Virus record (IMG/VR): IMGVR_UViG_3300009082_000023
Coordinates: 1-52,889 of that record
DNA: 52,889 nt
Origin: a virus
Taxonomy: Duplodnaviria > Caudoviricetes
Reading direction: 5' to 3' (one strand)
Within the stretch, counting starts at the first letter, position 1, and each line of letters opens with the position of its first letter. The translations under genes and the position numbers were made by a program. The notes under the pieces are model-generated. The model was not told where the DNA came from, did not search any database, and worked only from the letters and a program-made list of their open reading frames with translations. Below are positions 1 to 52,839 of the stretch, piece by piece.

Positions 1-123
1 CAAATGCACTTACCGACCTGTATAATAAATCAAGCCTGCGACAACTAAAGAATATTACCGTCAATCTTTGCATATTGTTTTCTATTCTGAATCAACTCCG
101 TTATCCTTAACTGCTCCGAGGTG
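1..123. repeat. 123-bp exact direct terminal repeat (copy 1); circular-assembly overlap
   Basis: 1..123 (caaatgcact...ctccgaggtg) is identical to 52767..52889; the ORFs at 45..803 and 52156..52839 read across it. Confidence 0.97.
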
Positions 124-803
124 TTAATAGTACCGTCACAAATAGGATTCAGGTCATTGTAAAGGTACAAAATCTTATCAATAAATCTCACATGACCGTC
201 TGCCATTTCAATCATAGGATACATAAAAGCCAAATCCCATGCTACTTTAAAATACTGCCCGTCGTCGCCTCGCAAATCCTTATCTTCAATCCTATCCCAT
301 AAAGACTTCCGGAAAGTCCTCAGATGAGATGTTACCCAGTACCCGCTCCTGCGATACTCAGCCGGTGTGGTCTGTGCATCTACCAACCACCCCTCCTCAC
401 ATGGAACCCTCATCTTATCAAAAGCCTGACAGGTATTTTTATACTTTCCTGATACCGGAAGAAAAGAGCCGTAAGTCATCCATACGTCATTTGTATAAAG
501 AGAGTCAAGATGTGATAACACTTTATCATCTGCCAGCCGGTCATCACCGTCAACGGTTACAATAATATCCTCACCTATTAACTTAATGCCCCTGACAATG
601 TTTTCCAAAGCACCAAGCCTCTTTCTGTTCGTTATGGCAAATACAGGATATTCCTTAATTACCCCCCACGTGTCGTCTGTTGAACAGTCGTTAATGACCA
701 AAACATCATAGTTCAAATAATCCTGAGATAATATAGACTCTATACACCCCCCGATCCACTTCTCGGAGTTATAGACCGGCACTATAATATTAAACTTGTT
801 CAC
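45..803 (-). CDS. GT2-family (GT-A) glycosyltransferase
   Basis: IIVPVYNSE..., INDCSTDDT, and DxD-type motif VDGDD. Confidence 0.9.
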   Translation of the reverse strand: MNKFNIIVPVYNSEKWIGGCIESILSQDYLNYDVLVINDCSTDDTWGVIKEYPVFAITNRKRLGALENIVRGIKLIGEDIIVTVDGDDRLADDKVLSHLDSLYTNDVWMTYGSFLPVSGKYKNTCQAFDKMRVPCEEGWLVDAQTTPAEYRRSGYWVTSHLRTFRKSLWDRIEDKDLRGDDGQYFKVAWDLAFMYPMIEMADGHVRFIDKILYLYNDLNPICDGTINTSEQLRITELIQNRKQYAKIDGNIL

Positions 804-1614
804 TTATTAATTTTCTCCAGTAGCCAAAATCCATCTTATCAAGGTTCCACTTAACCACCGCCATACGTTTGTACTCATTGAACAGAAACATATCCGTAAG
901 CTCCTCCCAGTCATCAATAAACAATATCGGCAAATCGGTATAAAATTGATTATTTATATTGCGGACACAAATAGGGATAGTTTTCATATAAAGACACTCC
1001 CAAACTCGGTGTGTGTCTATTCCGTTACCCTCAGGACAAACAACAAAAGGATGGTTATATATATTATCCAGGTAGTTATCAAAGCCCTGCCCATTAGCAC
1101 CATTATGCGCTGTTACCCACCCTTTGCCCTTCAGTACATCGTATGGCCTCTGCCTCTTTGCAGGGTTTGTCTTAATGTTATGATTGAGATAAAGAAGATT
1201 CTTAAAATCCTTTTTGTGGAGCAGTTTCTTTATCATTTTTTCCTTCTTATCTTTCAGCCAGAAATCATTCTCTATTCCTATCGGTATTGATTTAACTCTC
1301 TCATGCTGAATGTTCACGTTTGTAGTGTACCACATCAGGCAGTTATCCGGTGGCTCAATATCTGCGGGTGTATCAGCATTATGAGTGATAAGGATATATT
1401 TCTTTTTTATATTTTGAAAAGCGTAGTCTGCAAAAAACGTATGAGTGTATATTATATCGCCGTCAACCAACAACCGGCTATCCAAAGTACTTACCATATA
1501 CCGATAGTCATTGTGAGTAAAGTTATTCAGCTCCGTCCCTGGCGGCGGTGCATACTGAAACTTCGCTATCGTACGATACTTATTGCCCTGAATAAAGTCA
1601 TTCATATAAGTCAA
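790..1614 (-). CDS. putative glycosyltransferase, exostosin/GT47-like C-terminus
   Basis: FVVCPEGNGIDTHRVWECLY..IPI motif; located in the glycan island. Confidence 0.65.
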   Translation of the reverse strand: MTYMNDFIQGNKYRTIAKFQYAPPPGTELNNFTHNDYRYMVSTLDSRLLVDGDIIYTHTFFADYAFQNIKKKYILITHNADTPADIEPPDNCLMWYTTNVNIQHERVKSIPIGIENDFWLKDKKEKMIKKLLHKKDFKNLLYLNHNIKTNPAKRQRPYDVLKGKGWVTAHNGANGQGFDNYLDNIYNHPFVVCPEGNGIDTHRVWECLYMKTIPICVRNINNQFYTDLPILFIDDWEELTDMFLFNEYKRMAVVKWNLDKMDFGYWRKLISEQV

Positions 1615-2413
1615 TTATCTTTTTTATCCCTTCCTCCAAAGACGTCTCAGGCTCCCAGTATCTCAGAATATCAGTCCCCGGCTCTTGCAGGACACTCCGC
1701 TGAACATCGTCTATCTCATCACCCAAAAGAACCGGGCAATCATTAAAATAAGACGCTACAATCCCTGCCACATCTTTAATCTTCACCCACAGAAAACTTG
1801 ATACATCAAACTGCCTGTCTTTTATCTCATCAAACCGCTCCATTATGATATTTATACACCGGCAACAATCATCTACATATAAAAACTGTCTAAGCTCCTC
1901 CCCTGTCGTACACATCTGAATGAAGTTATTTTCTTTCGCCATCTTGATAAAATTAATTATAGCGTACGACTTCTCTCCGTTCCACTTAGCACCATATACA
2001 TTCCAGAATTTAATTACCTTGCCATTTAAAGCATTAGTATATTTCTCCCCGATGCGCTTTAGTGTTCCATAACTGCTGTGGTTCATCCCCGACATCTGAC
2101 TTGAGATGAATATAAACGGGACACTGAATCTGCTCAGACTATCAAAAGTATGATTCATGATCTTTATGTTATTTGAAATGAACCTGTAAGTATCCTGATT
2201 CTTTTTTAAATAAACAGCCCCCCCTACGTCAAAGGCAAGAAAAAATACAAAATCAACCCCTGGTATTATTTCATCCAACACACCGGGAATGCGCAAGTCT
2301 TGCATTGGATTTAAATGGTAATCAAACTCTATCACGTCATTATTCAATTCTCTTAGATAAGACGTTAATCGTGTTCCTATGTGCCCTGCCGAACCTAATA
2401 TAATTATCTTCAT
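1598..2413 (-). CDS. NAD-dependent nucleotide-sugar epimerase/dehydratase (extended SDR)
   Basis: GSAGHIG Rossmann motif, YGTLK catalytic YxxxK, NVYG, RQFLYVDD. Confidence 0.88.
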   Translation of the reverse strand: MKIIILGSAGHIGTRLTSYLRELNNDVIEFDYHLNPMQDLRIPGVLDEIIPGVDFVFFLAFDVGGAVYLKKNQDTYRFISNNIKIMNHTFDSLSRFSVPFIFISSQMSGMNHSSYGTLKRIGEKYTNALNGKVIKFWNVYGAKWNGEKSYAIINFIKMAKENNFIQMCTTGEELRQFLYVDDCCRCINIIMERFDEIKDRQFDVSSFLWVKIKDVAGIVASYFNDCPVLLGDEIDDVQRSVLQEPGTDILRYWEPETSLEEGIKKIIDLYE

Positions 2414-2418
2414 AGTTA

Positions 2419-3195
2419 TTAATGGAATAGATGAATATTGTGCTGGATTACTAACTGATCATAAGGCGAGTTAGGAAAGTCCCCCCTCTCATTAATGCTA
2501 TACTGTGAAGGGTCTCTGTAAATTTCCCTTCCATATTTAGTACACAATAACGAGAACACAGACTGGTCAAAGAGATGGTATTTGAAATCTGGCAAATTAG
2601 GCTGACCGCAAACATTCATGTCATCCGTCACAATACGTGAATCAGTCATATACGTCTGCCATTCTGTTAAGAAAGCCATATTTCCGGGTGTTTTCATCCA
2701 TGAAGATATGGCAGCATTAACGCACCTGGTATGCCAATATAAAGGACTATCTAAACCCATTAAAATAAAAGTATCCCTCTTTGTATAAATAGAATGATAA
2801 TGAAGCCTCTCCGGCGTCTTTGATACTGCAAATATCATGCTCTTGTTCTTGTCTAATTGGGTGATCTCAAATAATGGGTCAAGGTTATTCACAACTCTCA
2901 TCCCCGCATCTATATATAAAACAATATCACCGTCCTCGCATAGCCTCATTGTTTCCAAAATTATGTAAGGCTTCCAAATCCAATAACTAGCCGTCCTTGT
3001 TTTGCGTGTCGCATTGTCATTAATGGGCCTTGACACTATACCCCAGTTTTCAATAAAAAATACAGAGTCTTTAAGATCATCATACGTATATTTCACAAAC
3101 TCATCAACCATACCCGTCTCAATAGATGACCTTTTAAGTATATCAAGATTTTCGTAATATCCTTTAGTACCGTATGATGTCACATATTTTCTCAT
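2419..3195 (-). CDS. putative GT-A glycosyltransferase
   Basis: YWIWKPYII, LYIDAG and DQSVFSLL motifs typical of sugar transferases; genomic context. Confidence 0.6.
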   Translation of the reverse strand: MRKYVTSYGTKGYYENLDILKRSSIETGMVDEFVKYTYDDLKDSVFFIENWGIVSRPINDNATRKTRTASYWIWKPYIILETMRLCEDGDIVLYIDAGMRVVNNLDPLFEITQLDKNKSMIFAVSKTPERLHYHSIYTKRDTFILMGLDSPLYWHTRCVNAAISSWMKTPGNMAFLTEWQTYMTDSRIVTDDMNVCGQPNLPDFKYHLFDQSVFSLLCTKYGREIYRDPSQYSINERGDFPNSPYDQLVIQHNIHLFH

Positions 3196-3452
3196 GTATA
3201 GCTTTTAATTTCATCCAGAATATCGGTGCGCCCGTTGGTTGCCGCCTCGTTTATCTTCTTATCTATTGCCGACTTCAATAGACTCCTTTGCTTTGCCAGC
3301 CGTATGTTGTCCCCGCTCAGTTTAACAATCAGGTCTATATCTTCTTTTGACCTCTTTGCTTTATTGTCAAGTTCGGCTGTCTTATCCAGTAATTTAAAGA
3401 GTTTCATGTTTACTGTTATCAGCTTGTCAATTAATTCACTAATTGTTTCCAT
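3192..3452 (-). CDS. small helical hypothetical protein in the glycan island
   Basis: ORF adjoining its neighbours; begins TISELIDKL. Confidence 0.6.
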   Translation of the reverse strand: METISELIDKLITVNMKLFKLLDKTAELDNKAKRSKEDIDLIVKLSGDNIRLAKQRSLLKSAIDKKINEAATNGRTDILDEIKSYT

Positions 3453-3454
3453 AA

Positions 3455-4132
3455 TTAAATTATGTTCCAGTTAAGCCTCAAAATCATCTGATCAAACGGC
3501 GCAGGTCTTACATATCTATGTAGGTTCAAGCTGTTATGTATTATATTCATCAGGTCAACAAATGCAACCAGCCCTGTTGTAAAAATATGTACCTCCTTAG
3601 ATTTCTCAATCAGATAAAGTGTGTCTAATATACTTACATTCTTCAGTTCAACTAAATGAATAATCCTGATGTCGGGGATATATCTTCTGTCAATCATAAA
3701 ACCCCTGGCAGGATCATCATGCAGAAAAACATATTCTTCATCGTCTTTTAACCCTAAATCATAAAATATATCCTTTTCTTTTTTCAGGTCACGTTCAAAG
3801 TAGAAATTGTCCCACATCAGATTTAAGGGTAGATTCATCCGGTCATAAAAGAACCTGACAAATGATATAGTAGGGTCTTCTTTGATAACATCAGCATATT
3901 CCTGCCATCCGAGATACAGAACGTCTTTGTATGTTTTGGGATCATCAGTATTGATTTGAACATTTTTTATACTGCTATAAAGCCTTCTTATATTCTCAAT
4001 ATGAAGATCGGAACAATGCTTCATGACGAAAAGTATTATATTATCATATCTTTTAGATAGCTCCTTAATCAAGCCATAACAGATAACATAATCTCCGAAA
4101 CCGTAATGAGTACAAATAAAAAGATCATTCAT
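3455..4132 (-). CDS. putative GT-B-like sugar transferase (HxGxGD N-terminus)
   Basis: THYGFGDYVICYG resembles GT9/fucosyltransferase-like N-termini; genomic context. Confidence 0.45.
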   Translation of the reverse strand: MNDLFICTHYGFGDYVICYGLIKELSKRYDNIILFVMKHCSDLHIENIRRLYSSIKNVQINTDDPKTYKDVLYLGWQEYADVIKEDPTISFVRFFYDRMNLPLNLMWDNFYFERDLKKEKDIFYDLGLKDDEEYVFLHDDPARGFMIDRRYIPDIRIIHLVELKNVSILDTLYLIEKSKEVHIFTTGLVAFVDLMNIIHNSLNLHRYVRPAPFDQMILRLNWNII

Positions 4133-4884
4133 AAATCTTCCGTATAAATATGTTCTGCCCTAAACTCTTTTTTATGCCTCAATTCTTTAAAAAGTGCCGC
4201 ATTCCTATTGTACTTGTTCTCATTAAACTCAAAGGCCTTATTGTCGTAATGGTACTGATGAAATACAAATGGCGAGTCAATGATACGAACATCCAATCCC
4301 AAACAGCGTACCTGATGAATGAAATAGTTATCTTCATAACCAAGCCCCTCAGAAAACCTCTCATCAAAGCCGTTAATCTTTTTAAGATTGTCCATAGTTA
4401 TAGCACAACAAAAATGAAGTGCTTCGGGCCGGTAAATAGAATGATTGTACCATGCACTGTCGCCATTGCTGACAGCTATCCGATTATTAAGACTTCTTAA
4501 ATCTACGTCCTGCCCTTTCCCTAGAGAGTAACAAGCAAATGAAAGATAATTATTTTGACTCAGATGCCTCTTTACATATCCTACTATGTCGCCACTATGA
4601 TAACACTCTGCATTCTGAATTATTACACTCGTAGCACCACCTTTTAATGCCTGAATAAATCCGAAGTTAAACACGGGGGCGGGGGCAAACCATTTCTTTT
4701 CGTTCAATCGTAGAATAGTTATCTCAAAAGGATAAGATTGGAGATTCAGCTCTTCAGGTGAATTGTCGTCAACTATAACAACATTAAAATCCGCCGGGTC
4801 ATACTGAAGAAAAGAATCTAGTGTTTTAAGCAGTTGTGAGAGGCGGTTATAATATGTGGCCACAATAGTTATCATCCAACGCAA
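4129..4884 (-). CDS. GT2 glycosyltransferase with GT7C-like C-terminus
   Basis: VIVDDNS; NGFDERF..GLGYEDN. Confidence 0.85.
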   Translation of the reverse strand: MRWMITIVATYYNRLSQLLKTLDSFLQYDPADFNVVIVDDNSPEELNLQSYPFEITILRLNEKKWFAPAPVFNFGFIQALKGGATSVIIQNAECYHSGDIVGYVKRHLSQNNYLSFACYSLGKGQDVDLRSLNNRIAVSNGDSAWYNHSIYRPEALHFCCAITMDNLKKINGFDERFSEGLGYEDNYFIHQVRCLGLDVRIIDSPFVFHQYHYDNKAFEFNENKYNRNAALFKELRHKKEFRAEHIYTEDL

Positions 4885-13928: not shown

Positions 13929-14159
13929 TTATGAAGATATTGTACTTCGCCCTTTAGATAAAGGGACGTTCCCTATTCCATGCGCCCGGTCATGACATTT
14001 ACGGCACATAGCCATTAGATTACTGATTACATCCTTGCCCTTGCCTCTGCCCTCAATATGATGAATATCTTTTGCCGGACGGCCACAGGCTTCGCATAGC
14101 ATAACATCCTGCTCCCCGTAATCAAAGTACCTCATATAAACTTTACAGTGGCGGGTCAT
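13929..14159 (-). CDS. HNH endonuclease-like protein
   Basis: CEACG...DIHHI...NLMAMCRKCH..AH. Confidence 0.8.
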   Translation of the reverse strand: MTRHCKVYMRYFDYGEQDVMLCEACGRPAKDIHHIEGRGKGKDVISNLMAMCRKCHDRAHGIGNVPLSKGRSTISS

Positions 14160-16927: not shown

Positions 16928-17140
16928 TTATTTAATAATATATGTTCCGTTATCTATTCCCCTTTGAAAGATTCTTATTGAAGTACAAGCTCTTCTCATT
17001 GTATTTTTCCCCCATGAACTTTTTTCAGCAATCCCTGTCCACCAACTAATTTTCTTATCCGTTACGTTTGATATTATAAATTCGGCACCAGTCGGAGTAA
17101 AAATCATTTTCATTCCTGTTTTTAAATCTGTTGCTTTCAT
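16928..17140 (-). CDS. hypothetical early protein
   Basis: first ORF after the AT-rich intergenic region. Confidence 0.55.
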   Translation of the reverse strand: MKATDLKTGMKMIFTPTGAEFIISNVTDKKISWWTGIAEKSSWGKNTMRRACTSIRIFQRGIDNGTYIIK

Positions 17141-17394
17141 TTTGTTATTTATAATTAGTCTAAATAAAGATAATCTATTTTTCTATTTTGCTTAACGGGG
17201 TAAAGGTATATATTACTTATATACTACAATATTATTATGTCAAATAGAATGCAGATTTTTTGTAATTTATATTCATTATAAATAACACTACAAACCCCTT
17301 TATCTACGATTTCAGCCCTTCTGTTACAAAACGGCCTGCGCCACGACTAACGGGCAGATCATTCAACACACATCACCGGGCGCATCGTAGGAGC

Positions 17395-17427
17395 AAAAAA
17401 AGGAGGGTTACTATCTTCACCCTCCTT
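17395..17427 (-). terminator. intrinsic terminator ending the tmRNA transcript
   Basis: AAGGAGGGT-loop-ACCCTCCTT followed by a U-run. Confidence 0.85.
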
Positions 17428-17690
17428 AGTCGTCAAGAGTTGCCTCTTAGCAATTACGCTGCCATGCGTGACTGTGACCTTTCGGTCATTGAAATTGTTT
17501 TGCCTTTTATGGCTTTAGTCCTCCATTATTGCCTTGCATCCTGTCAAATCCAGTCATCCCCATACTGGTTGTTAAGGCACAACCATAAGCCGGGGCTGTC
17601 TAAGCCGTCCACCATCCGGGATTAATCGGAGTGGAGATGCCGGGAATCGAACCCGGGTCCAGTGATACCGCCTTATAACTTCAACGAACT
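17395..17690 (-). ncRNA. ssrA: circularly permuted (two-piece) tmRNA
   Basis: The acceptor piece GGACCCGGG-TTCGATT-CCCGG-CATCTCC-A (17660-17632) precedes the coding piece GGGGATGACTGGATTTGACAGG (from 17561). The 7-bp acceptor stem has G3:U70. Tag ORF 17504-17454 encodes GKTISMTERSQSRMAA*. Confidence 0.88.
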
Positions 17691-17694
17691 AAGG

Positions 17695-17726
17695 CAAATT
17701 TAAAACGTATTTATTTATTATGCAAA
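17695..17726 (-). promoter_or_regulatory. Bacteroidota-type promoter of the tmRNA gene
   Basis: TTTG (17726-17723), 20 nt spacer, TAAATTTG (17702-17695). Confidence 0.8.
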
Positions 17727-17734
17727 TTTATTTT

Positions 17735-17767
17735 AAAAACAGAGAGCCGGAATGAACCGACCCTCTG
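17735..17767 (-). terminator. intrinsic terminator ending the late/lysis operon
   Basis: CAGAGGGTCGG-TTCATT-CCGGCTCTCTG-TTTTT; a second hairpin CCGGGG/CCCCGG lies at 17797..17818. Confidence 0.8.
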
Positions 17768-17826
17768 CCCCTAAAACCAAGAAACTATGAAAACTACCGG
17801 GGCTAACCACTTCCCCGGCTCAGAAA

Positions 17827-18552
17827 CTACTTAATAAACTGATGTCCGGTTATAAGGATGGCAGTTGTTAGTACCACATGAAACCAGGTCTTTTGATAAA
17901 ACTTCTTATTCTCCTTAATGATCAGTGCCTCCATTGAATTGACTTTCAGATAAGGATTTTCAGTTGTAAATATGCCAACCGGTTTAACTTTCAGGAATCC
18001 TGCTTTCTGATAACCGAGAGTCAGCTCCCCGGAAAACAAAGTCTCAAGTTTGAACCAAGCGAGTTTATTTGTGTCCATTCCTGCATTAAGAGTAAGATAC
18101 TTCTCGTTGATTTTTAATAGATCAAAAGGTATTTTAACATAACTCTGATAAACCCCTGATGTATCTTTTATAGTTATTATTGTCGTACCCGGAACCAATT
18201 TTAACGAATCCCTGAGTATCTTAATCGTACTCTCCAGTTTAGTATTTGCCAAAACCTGTTTCAAATGTAGGGCTTTCAGACGTTCTTTCTCAAGTAATCC
18301 TGCCCGGATAGCATCTTTTTGATCTTCAATAATGGCATTTTTTACTGATACAAAGTTTTCCAGTGACCCTATTTTAACAGAATACCTTTGAATTGTATCC
18401 CTGTACGCTGTCAGATTAGCCACATTTAAGGCTCTTTCTTTTTTCAAGGGGCTATGCCCAAAAAAATAACCTATGCTTAAAACGCAAATAAACGCTAAAA
18501 TAAGCCATATTCGTTTTTTTAACCAGTCAAGTAGTTTTGTAAACATCTGCAT
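17827..18552 (-). CDS. membrane-anchored coiled-coil lysis-cassette protein (spanin-like)
   Basis: N- and C-terminal hydrophobic segments with a coiled coil; last gene of the lysis cassette. Confidence 0.55.
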   Translation of the reverse strand: MQMFTKLLDWLKKRIWLILAFICVLSIGYFFGHSPLKKERALNVANLTAYRDTIQRYSVKIGSLENFVSVKNAIIEDQKDAIRAGLLEKERLKALHLKQVLANTKLESTIKILRDSLKLVPGTTIITIKDTSGVYQSYVKIPFDLLKINEKYLTLNAGMDTNKLAWFKLETLFSGELTLGYQKAGFLKVKPVGIFTTENPYLKVNSMEALIIKENKKFYQKTWFHVVLTTAILITGHQFIK

Positions 18553-18763
18553 CGGTTACCATTTTAGTAATGAACTTAAAAAGCACAGCGAAAGCACTCC
18601 ATCCCCACGTAACCCACTCTTTACCGGCAAAGTCAGGGACTTCCATCATGATAGGATCAATAACCAGGATAGTTGCAAGGATAATATCTGCAATCTTTTT
18701 AAGCGTTACCGGTGTACGCTTACTGTAATTCTCCGGATGAATTGAATAGTTAGCGATTCTCAT
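18527..18763 (-). CDS. holin-like membrane protein
   Basis: 78 aa, two hydrophobic segments, TP...KKIAD motif, next to the endolysin. Confidence 0.6.
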   Translation of the reverse strand: MRIANYSIHPENYSKRTPVTLKKIADIILATILVIDPIMMEVPDFAGKEWVTWGWSAFAVLFKFITKMVTDADVYKTT

Positions 18764-30204: not shown

Positions 30205-30887
30205 TATGCAACATTTTTATTTTTCTTATTCCACGGGATATTACCCATCATTGCTTTGCTAATTTTTTGTTTAGTCGATTCAGACAATGGCTTTCTTTTT
30301 TTGCCAGTTAGTGCTTTTGAAATCTTTAAACAAGTTTCCTTGCTTACCTTTTTCCCTTTCTGAGAATAAGTTAATTTTTTACCTGTTAATGCGGCACTTA
30401 TTTTTTTCTTTCTTTATTCTGATAATTTTTGTCCCTTAAGGGTGTTACTAATCTTTGCCCTTACTTCTACAGACATTTTTTTACCCTTAGCCGCATTGCT
30501 CATCTTTATACGAACCCACATAGGCATTGGCCCGTGTTTAATTCCTTTCTGCCATAATCCCAGTCTCTTACAGGTTTCTGCTGATCTTTTTACCCCCAAA
30601 CAATTATTAGCTATCTTACATATATTAAACCACGGATTAAGTCCGTCTATATAAAATTGTTCTTTCTTGATTAAATCTTCTTTATCACATTCAATTATTA
30701 TCGAGAAAACTAGATCATCTTTGCCGTACTTGTTATAATGGTTTTGGAGTTTGGAATTTCCGTGTTTATTCCGTCTTAATAGGCTTAAGTGTTGTTGCCA
30801 TCGTTCATAAATATTAAATGCACTACCAACATAATGTTTTTGGGGTTTTATTACAGATTCAATTTTATATATACCACATATTTTCAT
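30204..30887 (-). pseudogene. GIY-YIG/NUMOD3 homing endonuclease with an in-frame premature stop at 30414..30416
   Basis: GIYKI...YVGSA. The same frame continues with NUMOD3-like repeats to a TAA overlapping the tape measure ATG. Confidence 0.8.
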
Positions 30888-40154: not shown

Positions 40155-40386
40155 TTCGTTTCTCGTAGTTCAAATCAATGAATGACTCCCTCATCCGGGA
40201 GACGGTGACAATAGCCACGTTAATATCGTAAGGCTCTTTTACAAAAGCATAGTAACGTTCAATGGCCTGCTTTAGAGTTATCGTAGGTACAAGGTCTTTT
40301 TGAGCCTCTACCCAAAATAGTAAGGCAATAGACTCAAAGTTCTTTTTATACAGCCTATGGATCGGTCTATTTATGTCTGCAGTCAT
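40084..40386 (-). CDS. hypothetical protein
   Basis: ORF overlapping both neighbours. Confidence 0.45.
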   Translation of the reverse strand: MTADINRPIHRLYKKNFESIALLFWVEAQKDLVPTITLKQAIERYYAFVKEPYDINVAIVTVSRMRESFIDLNYEKRNENTSQNCRHIKEERRVPGCCQK

Positions 40387-41023
40387 AATATCTTTGTCTT
40401 TCGTTAAACTTACCTAACTCACCGAGTTCATATTTGCGCCTCATCCGTGTAGAGGTTTTCTTTAAAGTTGCTGATCCGATATGATCCACCTGAACACTCG
40501 TGAATAGTGCGTGCTTTATCCCTGCCGTCTTTATCTGCTCCCCATAGAGGTTATCCGAGAACCAAAAGGTCATTGTCTCATCTAGTTTGCCAATAGCATC
40601 CAAAACGGTACGGTCAATAAATATACACCAGCCGTTAAGGATAGCCCCTATGGCATAACCTTCGTACATCATTCCGTCTTTCTGAACAGGTGTTCCAACC
40701 GAGTAAGCCGAAGCTGAGTGATAGCCATTCATTCGCATCAAATCCCCTATCTTTGACCACCCCGGACGGAAGATCAGATCATTGTTTGCCAATATGTAAA
40801 TATCACCTTTGACGTGTTTAAGCCCTAAATTCAATGCACGGTTATAATTAAACTCCCCATTGTACTGAATGAACTTATCTACGCCTTTATATTTGTAAGG
40901 ATTGCCCGTCTCAATAAGTATCACATCGACGTTACCCTCAGCCCGAGCAGAGTCAATGCACCGTTGCGTTACCGGTGTCAGTATCGGTGTACTCTTTGAT
41001 ACTATGATGAGGTCATAAGTCAT
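40367..41023 (-). CDS. GT2-like glycosyltransferase in the head module
   Basis: FNYNRALNLG, LANND, IGKLDE...WFSD. Confidence 0.85.
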   Translation of the reverse strand: MTYDLIIVSKSTPILTPVTQRCIDSARAEGNVDVILIETGNPYKYKGVDKFIQYNGEFNYNRALNLGLKHVKGDIYILANNDLIFRPGWSKIGDLMRMNGYHSASAYSVGTPVQKDGMMYEGYAIGAILNGWCIFIDRTVLDAIGKLDETMTFWFSDNLYGEQIKTAGIKHALFTSVQVDHIGSATLKKTSTRMRRKYELGELGKFNERQRYYDCRHK

Positions 41024-41202
41024 TTACAAGTATTAGGTTGGTCTCTTAGAATTTCTATTAGAATTTCTTCGGCCAGTAATTTGCGCCCCTTCCAAAAAAA
41101 TTCTGCATTTGGTTGAAAACATTCAGGATATTTTTTGACATTTTTTAATGTTATACAAGCAATGTCAATCTCATTTCTAACACAATGTTCAATTGCATTC
41201 AT
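41020..41202 (-). CDS. small hypothetical protein
   Basis: ATGA-coupled on both sides. Confidence 0.45.
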   Translation of the reverse strand: MNAIEHCVRNEIDIACITLKNVKKYPECFQPNAEFFWKGRKLLAEEILIEILRDQPNTCK

Positions 41203-41813
41203 AATACATATTCTTTAGTTGGTGTGCTTTGGTTTATTCCTATATGTCGCATCTCTAAATCCAGAAGATAACAAGGGTGATAAGCATGACGAAGGAAATA
41301 CTTACCTATCATTGAGTCACCGCATTTCAGATGTTTAAACTCCATGCAAAGCCTCTCACAAATTGAGTACGGTATCATCTGAAAAGCCCCGCCGGTATGA
41401 GTCGTCAGCTTCACGGGATAGTCATTGATAACACCTTCGGTAAGCACTTCAGGTGCATAAGCCCTGTCAAGATTCAGATCAATGGGCGAACAGACATAAT
41501 TCCTGCTATATTCATAAAAACCCAGCATCTTATTAATAATGTCATCTGTCACCGTTTCAATGTCGTTGTCCAGCTTCAGGATAAAGTCATAACCTTTCAG
41601 TTGTTTGACAGCATCCCTGAATGCGTAAGCTATCCCGAAGTTGCGCCCCAAAAGAATGCGGTTGAAGTCCTTTAGGTATTCCTGCGTCCCATCCGTCGAT
41701 CCATTGTCAATGAACAAATGATAATCTACCGAAGTCTTATCATAAAAACTTTCAACTGTCTTTTTAGTTAAGTCCAATCGGTTATATGTTATCGTAACAG
41801 CGGCGACTGTCAT
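41199..41813 (-). CDS. GT2 glycosyltransferase in the head module
   Basis: ITYNR, IDNGSTDGT, KLDND. Confidence 0.88.
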   Translation of the reverse strand: MTVAAVTITYNRLDLTKKTVESFYDKTSVDYHLFIDNGSTDGTQEYLKDFNRILLGRNFGIAYAFRDAVKQLKGYDFILKLDNDIETVTDDIINKMLGFYEYSRNYVCSPIDLNLDRAYAPEVLTEGVINDYPVKLTTHTGGAFQMIPYSICERLCMEFKHLKCGDSMIGKYFLRHAYHPCYLLDLEMRHIGINQSTPTKEYVL

Positions 41814-41952
41814 ACAGATATTAATTTTATCAATATCTTATATTTCAATTTTGTTCTTATCCACCAAATCCAAAGAGGATGAATCTTAATAAGTAATTCC
41901 CCTTTATTTTCTGAGGGAATAGATTTCATATACCATTTCAATTTAGCCATAA

Positions 41953-42555
41953 TTACAGGTCATACCCTCCTTTACCGGGCAAATGCAAAACGTAATACTC
42001 CCCCCCTTCAATTTTACGATAGTTCGGATACCTTCGCAGCTCCTGAACGAAATAGTAGTCGTGTGCATAGCCTGAGTGTTTCCAACGTACCGGAAGGGCT
42101 TGCCGGTGACAGATATTACTCGTACCGTGCCTTCCTATCTTCGTAATATCGCAGGGGTTTTGATACCAACGCCCGGACTTTGGCATATAACGGACGTCAT
42201 CAAACCACACCCAGTCACTCTCTCCTATCTGCTCTGCTATTCTTTGCAGATGATTCTCACCCCAGATGTCGTCAATATCCAAGTAAACAATATACTCTCC
42301 CTCCGCCTCCTCAATTCCTTTGTTACGAGGTTCGCCAGACCATAACGGCGACTTAGGAATAAGAAACGTCCGCACCTCCATACCCCGAAGCAAGTCCACG
42401 GTCTTTTGACAGCCATCAGCAACAACAATGATCTCAAAGTCTTTAAACGTCTGTTTGAATACCGAACCTATTGCCCGGAATATCTTATTCTCCCTATCCC
42501 GTGCTGCATTTGGATAAGGTGCGAGTAACGAAGGTATGACGACTGTAAACTTCAT
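41953..42555 (-). CDS. GT2 glycosyltransferase directly after the portal gene
   Basis: SVFKQTFKDFEIIVVADG, RNKG, YLDIDD. Confidence 0.9.
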   Translation of the reverse strand: MKFTVVIPSLLAPYPNAARDRENKIFRAIGSVFKQTFKDFEIIVVADGCQKTVDLLRGMEVRTFLIPKSPLWSGEPRNKGIEEAEGEYIVYLDIDDIWGENHLQRIAEQIGESDWVWFDDVRYMPKSGRWYQNPCDITKIGRHGTSNICHRQALPVRWKHSGYAHDYYFVQELRRYPNYRKIEGGEYYVLHLPGKGGYDL

Positions 42556-47185: not shown

Positions 47186-48169
47186 TCATCTTAGCCACCC
47201 TCCTAATCTAAGCAAATCTATTAAATATTCTTTATCTTTCAAATTATCAGCAGATGAAAATTCTTTTATCCCCGCCGGTGGTCTCTCAAAATAATCCCTG
47301 CCCGTCTTAACTTGCGGGTAAATAACGAAGTAATCTTCATTGACATACCGTGTCCTGTCCGCCTCATCGTGCGAGATAAGCACCTCATGAACCTTCTCTC
47401 CCTCCCTGCGACCTGTCTCAATGACTTCCGTCTGTCCGTAAAAGTCAATAAGCACCTCAAACAAATCCTTAATATAAAACGAAGGCATATTCATAACAAA
47501 CGTCTCTCCACCCTGCCCTAACTCCGTAGCCTGAAATAATAATCCTATTGCCTGCTCAATAGTCAAAAAGAAACGGGTCATTGTGGGATCTGTCATATAA
47601 ACCGGACTCCTTGATTTGATCTGATTAATAACATAAGGAACCAGCGAGCCGTTAGTACCTAAAACATTTCCGCCCCGGATGCAGATGAAGTCCGTATCCG
47701 AACTTAAACAGTTAGCCTGAATAGATAACCGCTCCCCAATCCCTTTAGTGTACCCGTAAAGATTAACCGGGGCCACAGCTTTATCCGTTGATACGTCAAT
47801 AAATTTCTTAATACCGTTTCGGATAGCTGCTGTTATAAGATTCTTTGTACCGATTATATTAGTCTGAATAGCCTCATAAGGATAATTCTCACAGATAGGG
47901 ACGTGTTTTAAAGCTGCCAGATGATAAACATAATCCACCCCTCTCATTACCTGCTCCACTGCTTCCTGATCCCTGACGTCACCGATAACGAAACGAAGCC
48001 TCTTGTCATTAAACTTGCGCTCCATGTCAACCTGGTTTATCTCTCCACGCGAAAAGATAATGACCTCTTTAGGATTCTTTAAAAGCAGTTGCCGGGTCAA
48101 CTCCCGGCCCCAGCTACCAGAACCACCGGTAAGCAGTATTTTAGTATTCATCATGGCCCTGCCTTTCAT
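47186..48169 (-). CDS. UDP-GlcNAc 4,6-dehydratase (PseB/FnlA/CapE family)
   Basis: TGGSGSWG, FSR.E..Q, GDVRD, HLAALKHVP, STDKAV.P.NLYG.TK, MTRF, G.R.GEK.HE. Confidence 0.92.
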   Translation of the reverse strand: MKGRAMMNTKILLTGGSGSWGRELTRQLLLKNPKEVIIFSRGEINQVDMERKFNDKRLRFVIGDVRDQEAVEQVMRGVDYVYHLAALKHVPICENYPYEAIQTNIIGTKNLITAAIRNGIKKFIDVSTDKAVAPVNLYGYTKGIGERLSIQANCLSSDTDFICIRGGNVLGTNGSLVPYVINQIKSRSPVYMTDPTMTRFFLTIEQAIGLLFQATELGQGGETFVMNMPSFYIKDLFEVLIDFYGQTEVIETGRREGEKVHEVLISHDEADRTRYVNEDYFVIYPQVKTGRDYFERPPAGIKEFSSADNLKDKEYLIDLLRLGGWLR

Positions 48170-49277
48170 ATCTGTAATCTTTCCCTAAAAGAATCCTTAC
48201 AACGGTATCAGACACATTCTCCTTAGTGTAATCCGGCAGTCCGCCCCACAGTTGATTCATCTTCATTATTCCCCTGTAAGCATTTAATATATCTTCTTTG
48301 TTTGTTGCTGAAAGTATCACTGATCCGTTTTCAATAAGCTCCTGCCTCTCGGTCGTATTACGAAGTATTATCGTAGGCACTCCAAATAATGAGGTCTCCT
48401 CGGGTACTGTCCCGCTATCAGTTAAAACTAATTTAGCTGACTTTTCAAGTTTAACAAAATCAAAAAATCCTATCGGGTCTATTAACTTCACTTTATCAGA
48501 AAATCTTATGCCATGTTTACCAAACTGATCCTTTGTCCGGGGATGAAACGAATAAACTACCGGCATATCTTCTGCTATCTCATTAACGGCCTCTACAACG
48601 TTCCTGGCACGGGAAGGGTTATCAACATTCTCGGTACGGTGAAAAGTAAGCAGGGCAAATGATTGCGGCTGTTCATAAGGCTTATCATCAAAATCTATAA
48701 ACTTACTCAAATTAAGCCTCTTCAAAATTTCACTATTATCAATTTCATACTCATAAAATTTCAGTACCTCGTTAATCGGGTTGCCAGTCTTGTAAACGAA
48801 GTTCTTTGAATGACCCTCCCTGATAAGATTCTCCTTTGAGTTCTCGGTATAAGGCAAATTATAAGTGGCAAACGAATCAATTATCTTCCGGTTACTCTCC
48901 TCGGGAACCAAAGGATCATAACATCTATTTCCTGCCTCCATGTGATAAACCGGGATGCCGCGTTTAGCTGCCATAATTGTAAGAAGTGAACTGTTTGTGT
49001 CACCCAGAACCAAAACCTTATCCGGCTTCTCTTTAATAAGTATCTGCTCAAATTGCATAAATCCATTACCGATAAATTCCCCTGTTGAATGTGTTCTGGA
49101 GAATATATAGTCAGGTTTGCGAATCCGTAAGTCCTTTAAAAAGATGTCGCTTAGATTCGGGTCGTAGTTCTGCATAGTGAAAACGTGAACGTGACGGCAA
49201 ACATCATCCAATTTACGAAGGATAATTGAGAGCCTTATCAGTTCCGGTCGGGTTCCTGTAATGGTTAATACTGTCAT
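48141..49277 (-). CDS. non-hydrolysing UDP-HexNAc 2-epimerase (FnlC/CapG/WbjD-like)
   Basis: GTRPELIRLS, GDTNS, HMEAGNRC.D..VPEE.NR, TDSGT..EE, TERQE. Confidence 0.92.
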   Translation of the reverse strand: MTVLTITGTRPELIRLSIILRKLDDVCRHVHVFTMQNYDPNLSDIFLKDLRIRKPDYIFSRTHSTGEFIGNGFMQFEQILIKEKPDKVLVLGDTNSSLLTIMAAKRGIPVYHMEAGNRCYDPLVPEESNRKIIDSFATYNLPYTENSKENLIREGHSKNFVYKTGNPINEVLKFYEYEIDNSEILKRLNLSKFIDFDDKPYEQPQSFALLTFHRTENVDNPSRARNVVEAVNEIAEDMPVVYSFHPRTKDQFGKHGIRFSDKVKLIDPIGFFDFVKLEKSAKLVLTDSGTVPEETSLFGVPTIILRNTTERQELIENGSVILSATNKEDILNAYRGIMKMNQLWGGLPDYTKENVSDTVVRILLGKDYRYERQGHDEY

Positions 49278-49945
49278 TTTTTATAAGTTAAATATAATTT
49301 ATTCATTAGTTCCGTCGTAGGTATTATATCGTCTTTAAACTCAGATATTATCTGGGCAACCTCGCCAACAGTTGTGAGATAAACCGGCTTCACTGTCAAA
49401 TATTCTTTTGACTCCCTGAATATGCTCCCCTCCATGAGATTACGAAACTCATTAACAACGTCGTCAACATATACAAGCATGAGCTCTTTATTCGGGTCGT
49501 TTATTTTAAGGTCAATGCCATAGCAGACATTAAATAGGAACGTATTTATTGCTGAGTTATATTCAGGCCTCCCCCAGCGACCAAATACATTAGCGAGCCG
49601 GTATAGATAAACCTTGCCTTTATACCACATTAAAAGCTCCTCCTCCAGACGCTTGTATTGCCCATGTTCCGTATTGCCCATTGCAAGTATTGAAGATGTG
49701 TAAATAATCGGGGGGTAGTTCTCATGCCTGTCAAGTGAAGAAAGAATAAACTGAGTGAGGTGGGTGTCAAATCCCTCCTTTATCCCCGATGCAAGATGAA
49801 AGATAAAATCTACATCTCTAAGGACAATATCAAGATACTCATAGGTATGTTCTTTGTCAAACAACAGGACTTTGTAATCCTGAAGTGCAAACAATAGATT
49901 TTTACCTATAAAGCCGTTGGTTCCTGTTATTAGTATTTTTTTCAT
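49274..49945 (-). CDS. FnlB/CapF/WbjC-like SDR lacking the C-terminal cupin
   Basis: ITGTNGFIGKNL, YRL.NVFG.W.RP.YNS...TF, L.LVYVDDVV, ends KLY.TY. Confidence 0.8.
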   Translation of the reverse strand: MKKILITGTNGFIGKNLLFALQDYKVLLFDKEHTYEYLDIVLRDVDFIFHLASGIKEGFDTHLTQFILSSLDRHENYPPIIYTSSILAMGNTEHGQYKRLEEELLMWYKGKVYLYRLANVFGRWGRPEYNSAINTFLFNVCYGIDLKINDPNKELMLVYVDDVVNEFRNLMEGSIFRESKEYLTVKPVYLTTVGEVAQIISEFKDDIIPTTELMNKLYLTYKK

Positions 49946-50769
49946 ACGTTTTTAATTAAGTTACCTATTATTGTGTTCGGCAGGTTTTTCTCCCCCCCGC
50001 CGGTACGATTAAGAAAGTCAGTCCAGATAACGTTCCCCCCGTACCAATGACATCCTATTGAACCTTCAGTAAACCTTACAGGCGACGACCTCATTAGCTC
50101 ACCAGCAGATACATGATGACAGTCATAAGCATATACTACGTCCATATCCAAGTTAACACCCTTCGGGATCATGTCCATATTCCTGAAATACTTATTGAAT
50201 AAATCCGGCCCCCAGCATTGATATTCCCGGACTTTGTAATTACCGTTAAAGCTATTCTGAAGTATCTCAAAAAACTCGCTGTTCTTTACTGCCAGGTTAA
50301 AGCCAGTAGAGTGTCCGTAATCAGCAATACAAACAAAAACATCCTTATCGGCGTTCTCAGGACAGTTGGCTTTCATATTCTCTATGGGAGCAAAGTAAAG
50401 AATATCCATATCAGTCCACAGTCCCCCTTGCTGATGAAGAGCAACTATACGAATGAAGTCAGCCTTATGAACCTCTGGGGTCTGCCGTGCAAAACCTATT
50501 TTATCAAAGTCCACTTCTTTCATCTCTACGTTTAACTTAGGAAGTTCGGAAAGATAGTTTTTACAAACCTTATCATTAACTACCGGAGTGCCTTTCATAT
50601 AATTCCATGACGGCTGTCCTCTGTAAGGAACTTTAGGATACCACACCACCACCCTCCAATCAGGGTTATGCTTTATGAAAGTCTTTAATGTCAGGTAACG
50701 GATATAAAGCAGATGATCCCCGCCCCAAAAGGTGTGAAGGATTTTCGGTATTCTATTCAGATGCCACAT
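49942..50769 (-). CDS. GT32-like (DXD) glycosyltransferase
   Basis: IPKILH.FWGG, KADFIR...L...GGLWTDMD, WGP. Confidence 0.8.
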   Translation of the reverse strand: MWHLNRIPKILHTFWGGDHLLYIRYLTLKTFIKHNPDWRVVVWYPKVPYRGQPSWNYMKGTPVVNDKVCKNYLSELPKLNVEMKEVDFDKIGFARQTPEVHKADFIRIVALHQQGGLWTDMDILYFAPIENMKANCPENADKDVFVCIADYGHSTGFNLAVKNSEFFEILQNSFNGNYKVREYQCWGPDLFNKYFRNMDMIPKGVNLDMDVVYAYDCHHVSAGELMRSSPVRFTEGSIGCHWYGGNVIWTDFLNRTGGGEKNLPNTIIGNLIKNV

Positions 50770-50772
50770 AGT

Positions 50773-51582
50773 TTATAAACATTTCATCATTGCCTCTTTT
50801 AAAATATCTTCGTACTTGTAATGCTTTAACCCATACTCATAGTTGTCGCCTACAAGCGAAAGCATACGCTCATAAACTTCAGGGGTGAGCTGATTACAAA
50901 CGTTTATTATATCATCAACACTATCAACCATAATCATACCGTATTCATTGAAGTATTCTCCAATCACTGTGCACCCCCAATAAATAGGAACCGTCTTTGT
51001 AATAAAGCAGTCAATTAATTTCTCCGAGAAATAATAACTATTCCTGAATCCCTCAATACAAATATGAAACATACAATCAAATACGTTTACTTTCCACTTC
51101 TTATTAGGCCACGGAGGCATCGGCAAAGTATCTGCCGTCGGTTCAAACTGATTCCATGATCCGCGGTAAATGTCAAACGGTATCTTTATCTCTTTGCGCC
51201 TTGCATAAAGCTCATGCCTTAGTGGATGTCCGGGGGCCACGTTGCGGCTTGTCATCACAATAGACACCCCGAATTTCTTTTTCAGGTCGGGGGCGGGATC
51301 AACAAATGAGCCATTGCCAATCAGCTTAATAGATTTCGGCAATGTTAATAGCTCTGGATATTGAGTAAGCAAAAACGTATAAGCCTGTGGGTTATCTAAT
51401 ATGATTTTGTTATAGTCTCTCCACCCCTCGGTAGTGACAAAAAAACGAATAGTATCTTCAGGTACAGGTGTGAGGTTCTGCGGAATAGTGTTATCAATAC
51501 AGCACTCTACCCGCTTATCAGTTGGCAGGTCTATATTGGCCTCAATGCCTTCAGGGAATATAGATTTCATTAATACTTTCAT
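50773..51582 (-). CDS. GT10 (alpha-1,3-fucosyltransferase)-like protein
   Basis: F.ICIE....YFSEKLIDCF...VPIYWG. Confidence 0.8.
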   Translation of the reverse strand: MKVLMKSIFPEGIEANIDLPTDKRVECCIDNTIPQNLTPVPEDTIRFFVTTEGWRDYNKIILDNPQAYTFLLTQYPELLTLPKSIKLIGNGSFVDPAPDLKKKFGVSIVMTSRNVAPGHPLRHELYARRKEIKIPFDIYRGSWNQFEPTADTLPMPPWPNKKWKVNVFDCMFHICIEGFRNSYYFSEKLIDCFITKTVPIYWGCTVIGEYFNEYGMIMVDSVDDIINVCNQLTPEVYERMLSLVGDNYEYGLKHYKYEDILKEAMMKCL

Positions 51583-52193
51583 GTTTGCATTTTTAAAAAT
51601 TCAGTAAGAAAAATAGGATTAGCGATGTGCCCGCAATCATCACGATACTGAAGATTGAAATATCCATTCTCGTCAGCATATTTATCGTAAACATCAAAAT
51701 ATATAAACCCAAATTCCCCGCATCTATTTTTCAAACATTCATTAAAAAATCTTACATAGCATCTTCTTTCCTCATCTGTGCCTGTACTTGGAAAAGGAGA
51801 TGCAGAAGCAGTCGCCTGAATATTGGATGGTACTACATTAAACACAAATTTTTTGGCTATTTTATATTGGTTAATAGCAAAGAAATAATTTTCAACAATC
51901 TTATCTATAATTTCTTTATAGTATTCTTTATTTCTTCCTATATGAACCCGGCAATCTATTTCTCCAAAGCAAAAACATACCCAATCATTTTTTCTAACCC
52001 CCATATCATAAATAGATGGCCTTTCTATTCCAAATGCAGCACAAGTTTTATCTATTAAATAATGGCAAATAATATTTAATCCAGTTATATTAATACCTCC
52101 CCATGTAAACTCTCTCGCATGACTATCACCTATGATATGTAAATTTATCATATTTTTATTTCTCGTTTCCTGTTTTATATTCACTCCTTCCAT
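51579..52193 (-). CDS. SGNH/GDSL-like esterase or acyltransferase
   Basis: IIGDSHA, FGEIDCR, D..H. Confidence 0.7.
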   Translation of the reverse strand: MEGVNIKQETRNKNMINLHIIGDSHAREFTWGGINITGLNIICHYLIDKTCAAFGIERPSIYDMGVRKNDWVCFCFGEIDCRVHIGRNKEYYKEIIDKIVENYFFAINQYKIAKKFVFNVVPSNIQATASASPFPSTGTDEERRCYVRFFNECLKNRCGEFGFIYFDVYDKYADENGYFNLQYRDDCGHIANPIFLTEFLKMQT

Positions 52194-52839
52194 AGCCTAT
52201 ATTCACAGCATGGTCTTCTAATAAGCAGGCACTACGATAGCCTAAGTCGTGATACCGCTCTCCTATGGCCTGCTCCCGATGCCAGATAGTACCCTGCCAC
52301 GGGATGTCAGCGTATGGCGCAACTTTCTTATAATCTGAAAGTCTTTTCAACCCGCAAGCCGTAGTAAATCCATGCCATGCAAAGTCATTATATCCGTTTT
52401 GTCCTCTCTGATAGTTATCGCAAACCAACTTATAAGACACGTTACCGGCTTTCAATATCTCAGGCTCTAAGGGATGTCCGTTGTAATCCTGCAACCAGAC
52501 CTCTTCTATTTTAGGGTCTTTCATTATTTCCATTGACCGTTCTATAAATCCGGGCTTAGTAATACACCAGTCATCCTCTACGTGGAAAAGCCAGCCCGTC
52601 TTAATGTGCGAATAACCTATGTCAATACTCTTTATCAGTCCATAGTTCTTATCATTCAAAACAAAGGTAACATTAACATAGGTATCTCTTAATTGCCGGT
52701 GTATATTAGTATCGCCTGAGTCGTTGACTATTATAAACTCACTTATCGGATAAGTGTTTATCTCTACAAATGCACTTACCGACCTGTATAATAAATCAAG
52801 CCTGCGACAACTAAAGAATATTACCGTCAATCTTTGCAT
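52156..52839 (-). CDS. GT2-like glycosyltransferase
   Basis: SCRR.DLL, IVNDS, FHVEDDW. Confidence 0.8.
   Translation of the reverse strand: MQRLTVIFFSCRRLDLLYRSVSAFVEINTYPISEFIIVNDSGDTNIHRQLRDTYVNVTFVLNDKNYGLIKSIDIGYSHIKTGWLFHVEDDWCITKPGFIERSMEIMKDPKIEEVWLQDYNGHPLEPEILKAGNVSYKLVCDNYQRGQNGYNDFAWHGFTTACGLKRLSDYKKVAPYADIPWQGTIWHREQAIGERYHDLGYRSACLLEDHAVNIGYGRSEYKTGNEK

Follow-up and report, generated by a model that had tools for sequence, protein, structure and literature searches.

Organisation of the locus

We describe a locus on the minus strand of a phage genome (IMG/VR virus record IMGVR_UViG_3300009082_000023) whose parts lie in the order of a circularly permuted gene for transfer-messenger RNA (tmRNA). 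This RNA, which releases stalled ribosomes, is nearly universal in bacteria, and its textbook form is a single piece with pseudoknots. The window, by which we mean the whole stretch analysed, is a complete virus record with terminal repeats (52,889 bp, 39.6% G+C, an exact 123-bp repeat). The locus lies at 17395-17726, in a 686-bp gap that separates the lysis end of the structural genes from the recombination and replication genes.

Read along the minus strand, the locus opens with a promoter-like site of the Bacteroidota type (17695-17726), in which TTTG (17726-17723) is followed after 20 nt by TAAATTTG (17702-17695), in the manner of TTTG/TAnnTTTG, which we take to be the promoter consensus of Bacteroidota. 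Two nucleotides separate the end of this site (17695) from the first modelled base of the tmRNA. There the acceptor piece begins (17632-17692, about 61 nt before CCA addition), as delimited by the alignment to the Rfam model RF04321 and by a two-strand fold. It holds the 3'-side strands of helix 2 (17692-17688, 17679-17676, 17668-17665 and 17662-17660), the T-arm CCGGG-UUCGAUU-CCCGG (17656-17640), the 3' strand of the acceptor stem, CAUCUCC (17639-17633), and the discriminator A17632, directly followed by CUC, so that CCA is not encoded. The 5' end of the piece is predicted from the position of the promoter and its 3' end from the tRNA-like fold.

An intervening segment of 70 nt (17562-17631), which stands as an insert in the RF04321 alignment, comes next and is predicted to be cut out; its hairpins GGCU/AGCC and UGGUUGU/ACAACCA both fold (-21.3 kcal/mol). 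The coding piece (17397-17561, about 165 nt), defined by sequence, alignment and fold, begins with GGGGAUGACUGGAUUUGAC at 17561. It contains the 5' strand of the acceptor stem, GGGGAUG (17561-17555), a 12-nt D-loop analogue, the 5'-side strands of helix 2 (17543-17541, 17539-17536, 17528-17525 and 17519-17515), the tag frame, two small hairpins and the terminator. Its 5' end would correspond to the RNase P site of the tRNA-like fold, and its 3' end is predicted from the terminator. The tag reading frame (17454-17504) comprises the 16 codons GKTISMTERSQSRMAA; it starts at the resume codon GGC (17504-17502), immediately preceded by a single-stranded AUAAAA, and closes with GCA GCG UAA, the stop codon lying at 17456-17454. 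A terminator-like hairpin (17395-17427), for which RNAfold gives a 9-bp stem AAGGAGGGU/ACCCUCCUU, a 10-nt loop and U7, ends the locus; its U-run starts 52 nt past the tag stop codon. With the 3' half up to 17632, the 70-nt spacer and the 5' half from 17561, the order at the locus is permuted. The promoter, T-arm, acceptor strands, spacer hairpins, tag and terminator had all been listed in a preliminary description made from the letters of this DNA, and each was recovered at the place given for it on the minus strand.

Covariance-model match and predicted fold

RF04321 (tmRNA_permuted, Rfam 15) matches 17454-17692 of the minus strand over model positions 1-213 of 213, with 62.6 bits against a cut-off of 47 (E 8.3e-10), and is the sole Rfam family above cut-off across the window. 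With the standard tmRNA model the score is no more than 24.5-32.8 bits, and the match lies on the 3' half of the gene. None of the alpha-, beta- and cyanobacterial models (RF01849, RF01850 and RF01851) was listed for the window above its gathering score. In clan CL00001 the best match alone was kept, which for the window is RF00023 at 32.8 bits; since none of the lineage-specific two-piece models was listed, any match of theirs scored below 32.8 bits.

When the two predicted pieces are folded together without constraints (-74.3 kcal/mol), the T-arm forms, as does an acceptor stem of 7 bp that includes G3:U70, and helix 2 joins the pieces in three parts; small hairpins in and after the tag and the terminator also appear. 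The acceptor stem GGGGAUG/CAUCUCC and the T stem are free of mismatches. In the RF04321 alignment helix 2 consists of helices of 5, 4, 3 and 3 pairs, to which one more G-C pair can be added by eye, and the free fold gives the same layout with a distal helix of 7 bp. The 7-bp stem with its alanine identity pair and the helix joining the two pieces, both proposed in the preliminary description, are thus found by alignment and by folding, and the model match and the fold bear out its central claim, namely that the phage carries a circularly permuted tmRNA gene equipped with a promoter-like site, a tag frame and a terminator hairpin of its own.

Pseudoknots in tmRNAs are usually four, and the first of them, PK1, sits between helix 2 and the tag. 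At the locus about 10 nt lead from helix 2 to the resume codon, and the 52 nt from the stop codon to the U-run are occupied by two plain hairpins. There is therefore no room for the usual pseudoknots, as had been proposed; the case rests on this lack of room because pseudoknots are invisible to minimum-energy folding.

In two other public runs (X2 and X3), DNA contigs span the gene with zero differing letters. As these contigs agree letter for letter, the gene is no artefact of assembly.

A family of short permuted tmRNAs

A pattern scan of IMG/VR for the permuted arrangement gave 63 loci. From these, a MAFFT alignment of 44 rows was built (42 IMG/VR loci, one locus from a metagenome-assembled genome (MAG), and the window); 8 exact duplicates and 13 non-duplicate loci of the proteobacterial type, with UUCGAC and AND tags, were left out. 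The window shares with the non-proteobacterial loci a UUUGAC D-loop analogue, a GUUCGUUGA-like 5' strand, the resume context AUAA(A/C)N and tags of the form x-K/N-V/T-I/V-...-R-A/M-V/A-A. The preliminary description had presented the gene as a singular event in one phage, a claim that does not hold, as the family occurs in 43 other viral and MAG loci, in unrelated phages.

All 528 of the 528 cells of the T and acceptor stems pair in this alignment, with 68 double changes at four variable pairs. The covariation score of the stems is 0.367, against 0.068 in shuffles, none of 500 of which reached the observed value, and at most 0.069 when the partners are slid against each other. The search pattern fixed GGGG, G7, CUCCA and two letters of the T stem, so the variable pairs alone count as evidence. 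Helix 2, folded as a duplex sequence by sequence, has the same three-part layout in most members. In 39 non-redundant members the cognate strands average -14.6 kcal/mol against -10.8 kcal/mol for permuted partners (standard deviation 0.43); none of 20,000 permutations reached the observed mean, and 14 of the 39 cognate pairs rank in the top three. Helix 2 of the window, at -21.2 kcal/mol, is second of the 39.

The tag frame is open to the aligned stop in 40 of the 44 members, with lengths of 30, 33, 42, 45 and 48 nt; in L013, L017, L032 and L055 it does not end there. The consensus of the family tag is x-K-V-I-x-M/L-F-x-x-P-L-R-A/M-V/A-A. ARAGORN calls the tags GKSISMVPQAFRMAV (L005), GKSIQMFNQPLRMVA (L056) and GKTFEMFHAPLRAVA (L046) at the position of the window's resume codon, which agrees with the GGC assigned in the preliminary description, and the first two of these tags are the nearest to that of the window. 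Conservation of the acceptor stem and of the tag frame in homologues, on which that description had staked its claim, is thus found. Besides GGC and GCA, the resume codons in the alignment include UCA, CCA, GUA, GAC and GAA, whereas the second position is occupied almost without exception by AAA or AAU/AAC. By eye, many members have a covarying hairpin (AUAACU...AGUUAU or CAACU...AGUUG) whose loop contains the resume codon. For L004 (331-959) ARAGORN gives a permuted tmRNA with a discordant 21-residue tag far downstream; the tag at the family position by alignment is GKVVQMFSPSLRAVA.

In 26 of 40 members the stop codon is followed by a hairpin with a U-run, the median distance being 44.5 nt (25-151 nt, with T-arms of tRNAs accounting for the longest few), and several others, on reading, run directly into a tRNA gene after the tag. 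At the other end, the distance from the end of TAnnTTTG to the T-loop is 41-50 nt in 9 of the 44 members (43 nt in the window), and 10 of the 44 follow a tRNA-like T-arm that ends 56-58 nt before the T-loop. From these spacings, the acceptor piece begins at roughly the same position in either setting. The intervening segment measures 46-75 nt in relatives, a range set partly by the search pattern. In many loci (e.g., L069, L036, L056, L063, L048 and L009) the loop of the terminator reads (A)GCGA(A/C)AU between G-rich and C-rich arms; the terminator of the window does not carry this loop.

RF04321 was above cut-off in 10 of the 11 permuted relatives tested, and the scores of the family range from 46 to 73 bits, which puts the 62.6 bits of the window in mid-range. 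ARAGORN reports 'tmRNA*' in 11 of 15 family loci, missing L069, L023, L008 and L015. On the betaproteobacterial model RF01850 the relatives score 28-53 bits against a cut-off of 84. The family has no room for PK2-PK4 and, at the place of PK1, holds at most a 3-bp hairpin.

Occurrence of the family and published precedents

Among 185,579 species genomes, the UUUGAC form of the pattern occurred in one, on a 5.8-kb contig of a MAG of Aequorivita (Flavobacteriaceae), and across 151 genomes of that phylum RF04321 was above cut-off solely in this MAG. The same genomes gave 21 weaker matches; the nine loci that were read are 5' halves of ordinary one-piece tmRNA genes, with the tags, where read, ANYNYAMAA, ANYDYALAA and ANYNYALAA. 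With E-value thresholds RF04321 gives 'full-length' matches of 28-41 bits to one-piece Bacteroidota genes (L078-L086, G003-G114), and matches below the gathering score are thus a trap when permuted tmRNAs are counted. No standard tmRNA scored over the cut-off in the Aequorivita MAG (best 21.4 bits), whose completeness is unstated and from which nothing is concluded here.

BLAST with the T-arm led to labelled tmRNA features in the crAss-like phages cr125_1 (NC_055900.1), cr10_1 (MT774382.1), cr114_1, cr50_1 and cr60_1 and in Chryseobacterium phage MA9V-3 (PV245944.1, 22766-23124). Those of cr125_1, cr10_1 and MA9V-3 are permuted by ARAGORN and score 46.3, 49.6 and 64.7 bits with RF04321, respectively, and the tag of cr10_1, GNNFVTDYTQLAVA, is identical in the viral loci L006 and L057. 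Directly upstream of the labelled tmRNA of cr125_1, and slightly overlapping it, lies a RAGATH-9 RNA (RF03146, 154.4 bits against a cut-off of 75.2; positions 500-668 of L089, about 87758-87926 of NC_055900.1). Cellulophaga phage Calle_1 (MT732432.1) has a one-piece tmRNA (RF00023, 86.6 bits), and phages of Stenotrophomonas and Xanthomonas have permuted tmRNAs of the AND.../UUCGAC kind, outside the family of the window. Searched against cultured phages, the window gene gave only a 34-nt T-arm match, to Gordonia phage GMA2; L004 gave nothing and L023 only its flanking peptidase gene. BLAST with L043, L031, L016 and L007 did not find Maribacter phage Panino or Cellulophaga phage phi4:1.

Permuted tmRNAs of phages have been published. 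Buchholz et al. 2022 (PMC9004378) count 53 ARAGORN-called permuted forms among 133 unique phage tmRNAs, and part 1 of their Table S1 lists as 'Permuted' cr115_1, cr114_1 and cr10_1 (host 'Unknown') and Cellulophaga phage phi4:1 (Bacteroidetes). In the main text of that paper the strings 'Bacteroid', 'Flavobacter' and 'Cellulophaga' have 0 occurrences each, so these entries are not discussed there. RF04321 was built from alpha-, beta- and cyanobacterial sequences in the 2025 tmRNA database paper (PMC11915505), which gives a count of 79 sequences from phages and names three clades of bacteria as having permuted forms. One tmRNA is reported in phage Calle (Bartlau et al. 2021, PMC8776804), and the paper on phage Panino (PMC11590407) mentions a phage copy of tmRNA. 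No paper describing permuted or minimal tmRNAs of Bacteroidota phages or crAss-like phages was found, in a search that did not extend to the taxon-by-form table of PMC11915505. Two-piece phage tmRNAs are therefore published, and members of the present family are labelled in GenBank/RefSeq records, though not as a curated family. Because public records label relatives of the window gene and a published table lists them, its novelty had been overrated; it is an additional member of an already labelled phage family.

The carrier phage, its host and the genomic slot

The carrier is a virulent-looking tailed phage. Its genes, 72 of the 75 chosen open reading frames (ORFs) being on the minus strand, include those for terminase subunits, portal, endolysin, RecT, NinB, a primase-helicase and a methyltransferase, along with many glycosyltransferases and sugar epimerases. 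No integrase was found in 61 ORFs compared with PHROGs and with Pfam, and SmpB is absent from the 61 scanned ORFs and from a six-frame search of the window, in keeping with the dependence on host SmpB that had been proposed.

There are 10 occurrences of the promoter motif TTTG-N18-22-TAnnTTTG in the window; shuffles give 1.83 +/- 1.40, and none of 100 reached 10. Of 72 ORFs only 8 are preceded by a Shine-Dalgarno core (background 16%); the upstream regions are rich in A instead. The terminase has 36 weak matches, all below 60% identity, including 11 Flavobacterium, 5 Salinibacter and 2 Bacteroides phage records and likewise 10 Rhizobium phage records. The promoter motif, the scarcity of Shine-Dalgarno cores, the terminase matches and the relatives of the tmRNA, including the locus in the Aequorivita MAG, point to a host that is likely a member of Bacteroidota, as first supposed.

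The phages with the tmRNAs most like that of the window (five records, one of them complete) have no terminase detectably common with it. The two nearly complete phages with the closest terminases (73% and 65% identity) carry no permuted tmRNA at E up to 0.01, from which it follows that the gene is dispensable. In the closest of these (G160) a homologous promoter stretch, 84% identical over 45 nt, lies at the slot that the tmRNA occupies in the window (L106, about 1440-1545, minus strand), and in place of the tmRNA about 85 nt of different, hairpin-rich sequence come after it. Rfam gives no match to this sequence at E up to 1, and it may be a further small RNA; it shows a long-range complementarity, UGGUGAG/CUCACCA, and a C5/G5 hairpin with a U-run. 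Since unrelated phages have the gene and close relatives do not, the tmRNA is a mobile, sporadic cargo of a promoter-to-terminator slot for small RNAs between gene modules. The 241-aa ORF upstream of the tmRNA has no relative in IMG/VR, and three RecT relatives have neither a tmRNA nor a terminase detectably common with the window.

Comparison with known tmRNAs

The labelled relatives in Bacteroidota and crAss-like phages are the nearest known genes. As in the window, they are phage-borne and permuted, match RF04321, and have the UUUGAC D-loop analogue, short tags beginning with glycine and little sequence between the tag and the end of the coding piece. They differ in being recognised by ARAGORN ('tmRNA*'), in their tags (GNVIDINKYVAKLEVAA, GNNFVTDYTQLAVA and GNFYVTDYTRIAA against GKTISMTERSQSRMAA), in their unrelated phage backbones and in their setting, a tRNA array in place of a promoter of their own; cr125_1 also has a much longer spacer (its match spans 326 nt). 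In this comparison cr50_1, cr60_1 and cr114_1 stand as labelled tmRNAs, and phi4:1 by its listing in Table S1 only.

Two-piece tmRNAs were reportedly described in Alphaproteobacteria (Caulobacter) by Keiler, Shapiro and Williams in 2000, and in a betaproteobacterial lineage and some cyanobacteria by Sharkady and Williams in 2004. They share with the window the order of 3' acceptor half, spacer and 5' half with tag, and a mature RNA whose pieces the acceptor stem and helix 2 are predicted to join. However, they are the sole chromosomal tmRNA and keep their pseudoknots, whereas the window carries a phage accessory gene without pseudoknots, and their tags, of the AND... type, are unlike that of the window.

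Phage tmRNAs of the proteobacterial type, those of the OM43 phage Melnitz and of pelagimyophages (PMC9004378), Stenotrophomonas phage vB_SmaM_Bhz51 and Xanthomonas phage JGB6, resemble the window gene in being phage-encoded, permuted and in need of host SmpB, and, like members of its family, they adjoin tRNA genes or sit behind a promoter of their own. They are set apart by the UUCGAC D-loop analogue, AND...-type tags (ANDDSYTVRIAA, ANDSYFEVALAA) and a longer region from helix 2 to the tag; Melnitz also has a glutamine riboswitch (PMC9004378). The one-piece tmRNAs of Bacteroidota and of Calle_1 have an acceptor stem GGGGAUG/CAUCUCC or GGGGGUG/CACCUCC and a T-arm nearly that of the window, and the Bacteroidota genes, too, do not encode CCA and have a C after the discriminator. 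These genes are nevertheless of standard order and 369-383 nt long, with pseudoknot regions, a G+C-rich helix 2 and the tags ANYNYALAA, ANYDYALAA or ANYNYAMAA; in four that were sampled the stems are like those of the window, and helix 2 and the tags are not. The tmRNA of mycobacteriophage DS6A (PMC4131195, PMC11915505) is likewise reduced, phage-borne and in need of host SmpB, but it consists of the tRNA-like domain only, without a tag frame, while the window has a conserved one.

Proposed function and alternative explanations

On the sequence evidence we hold it probable that the locus is a functional-looking, circularly permuted, two-piece tmRNA gene free of pseudoknots, carried as a sporadic accessory by this phage, whose host is probably a member of Bacteroidota. 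By analogy with the two-piece tmRNA of Caulobacter, after which the processing and rescue steps are modelled, the host-type promoter at 17726-17695 would start a precursor of about 295 nt that ends at the hairpin and U-run at 17427-17395. Its upstream 3' acceptor half and downstream 5' half would pair into a tRNA-like domain, and host tRNA-processing enzymes would cut before G17561 (RNase P) and after A17632, releasing the 70-nt spacer, with the CCA-adding enzyme completing A17632. The resulting pieces of about 64 and about 165 nt would be held by the 7-bp acceptor stem and about 16 bp of helix 2. Host alanyl-tRNA synthetase would charge this RNA through G3:U70, and host SmpB and EF-Tu would deliver it to ribosomes stalled on broken mRNAs, where translation would resume at GGC and add (A)GKTISMTERSQSRMAA. 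The phage may thereby gain extra rescue capacity while host mRNA is degraded, or give tagged proteins a fate unlike that brought by the host tags of the YALAA type. The benefits named in the preliminary description, rescue under cleavage of tRNA or tmRNA and redirected tagging, are speculation.

Several observations weigh against this conclusion or lessen its support. ARAGORN finds 0 tRNA and 0 tmRNA genes in the window, and of the two programs proposed as a check, ARAGORN and Infernal, the gene is recognised by the covariance model only; the criterion of ARAGORN's permuted routine is, however, a detector heuristic and no biological criterion. A simple terminator scan of 17100-17950 reported nothing, because the 10-nt loop exceeds the limit of 8 in that scan. 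PK1, which is important in E. coli tmRNA, is absent. The invariance of G3:U70 in relatives is no evidence, as the pair was fixed by the search pattern. For helix 2, RNAalifold on the MAFFT alignment, where its strands are unaligned, recovers the T and acceptor stems only, and comparison with mononucleotide shuffles gives moderate support (mean z -1.4; 14 of 44 members below -2; window -2.35). The tag of the window is the most divergent of the family in its middle part and ends in MAA, as against the usual R-A/M-V/A-A, and the closest relatives of the phage by terminase have no such gene. Finally, among 10 runs in a run look-up, the lone RNA run, a wetland metatranscriptome (X9) with part of the stretch that was compared along with three DNA runs, has contigs that cover 18523-18697 only, although contig coverage cannot demonstrate absence of tmRNA transcription. 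The interval falls within a 78-aa ORF (18527-18763) upstream of the tmRNA, and one of the three X9 contigs there differs at 9 places.

The RNA might instead be made, and perhaps charged, only to soak up SmpB or compete with the host tmRNA and so dampen trans-translation in the host, its tag being unused. The absence of SmpB from the phage and of any pseudoknot from the RNA would suit such a role, and a DS6A-like molecule is reported to inhibit tmRNA in E. coli (PMC11915505, PMC4131195). Yet genes of the DS6A type have no coding part, whereas 40 of 44 members here retain the tag frame, which varies in length by threes only and has a conserved second codon and C-terminal pattern, features that a pure decoy could do without. 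A tag conserved across the family is likely read, which makes a pure SmpB decoy less likely, and we consider it improbable.

The chance is slimmer still that the window holds a family gene on its way out, a possibility that would account for the divergent tag and for the silence of ARAGORN. The tag does not follow the family consensus in its middle part (TISMTERSQS), and the closest relatives of the phage lost the gene or never had it. However, all stems are intact, those of the acceptor and T-arm without a mismatch, and helix 2 is among the most stable of the family. The gene has its promoter, an open tag frame, the stop codon and a terminator, the Rfam score is ordinary for the family, and ARAGORN fails equally on four of the relatives.

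That the locus is a functionless recombination relic, attP-like or transduced halves of a host one-piece ssrA in a chance permuted order, is hardly credible and close to refuted: phages that integrate into ssrA do carry its 3' end (PMC4383910), and the T-arm and acceptor 3' strand of the window differ from those of the one-piece gene L083 at two T-loop positions only, but the scans of the ORFs gave no integrase, 44 sequences from unrelated phages show conservation and covariation of both halves, the inter-piece helix and the tag frame, and helix 2 and the tag of the window are unlike those of the sampled host-type genes.

A wider proposal may be attached to the reading of the locus as a phage accessory tmRNA gene, and we regard it as possible though rather doubtful. 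The family could be a fourth, purely phage-borne two-piece lineage, which arose by its own permutation of a Bacteroidota-type gene, lost the pseudoknots and moves between unrelated Bacteroidota phages, the abundant crAss-like gut phages included, with a conserved non-host tag that would set a fate chosen by the phage. The independent permutation of a one-piece Bacteroidota gene, already put forward in the preliminary description, is a speculative reading of the sequences; the origin of the family cannot be placed from the tRNA-like domain because this domain is too short and too conserved.

Taken alone, the window gene is a modest gain, although phage annotation based on ARAGORN would miss such a member. 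It represents a naturally minimised tmRNA (about 64 + 165 nt) reduced to the tRNA-like domain, helix 2 and the tag, and offers a compact natural test of what trans-translation needs, PK1 in particular. The hosts of the family's phages have one-piece tmRNAs, which raises the question why phages should bring in a ribosome-rescue RNA with an unlike tag.

Other features of the carrier genome

The window carries an unusually large set of polysaccharide-synthesis genes (45-4884, 40367-42555 and 47186-52839, minus strand), placed at both genome ends and between the portal and structural genes. Glycosyltransferase domains of family 2 or related families occur in at least 8 ORFs of the set, which also contains one Polysacc_synt_2 dehydratase/epimerase, one UDP-GlcNAc 2-epimerase and two other NAD-dependent epimerases. 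An ORF for a homing endonuclease of the GIY-YIG type (30414-30887, minus strand; phrog_314, E 4.7e-23) stands alone amid tail and structural genes, and an HNH endonuclease ORF lies in the early region (13929-14159, minus strand).

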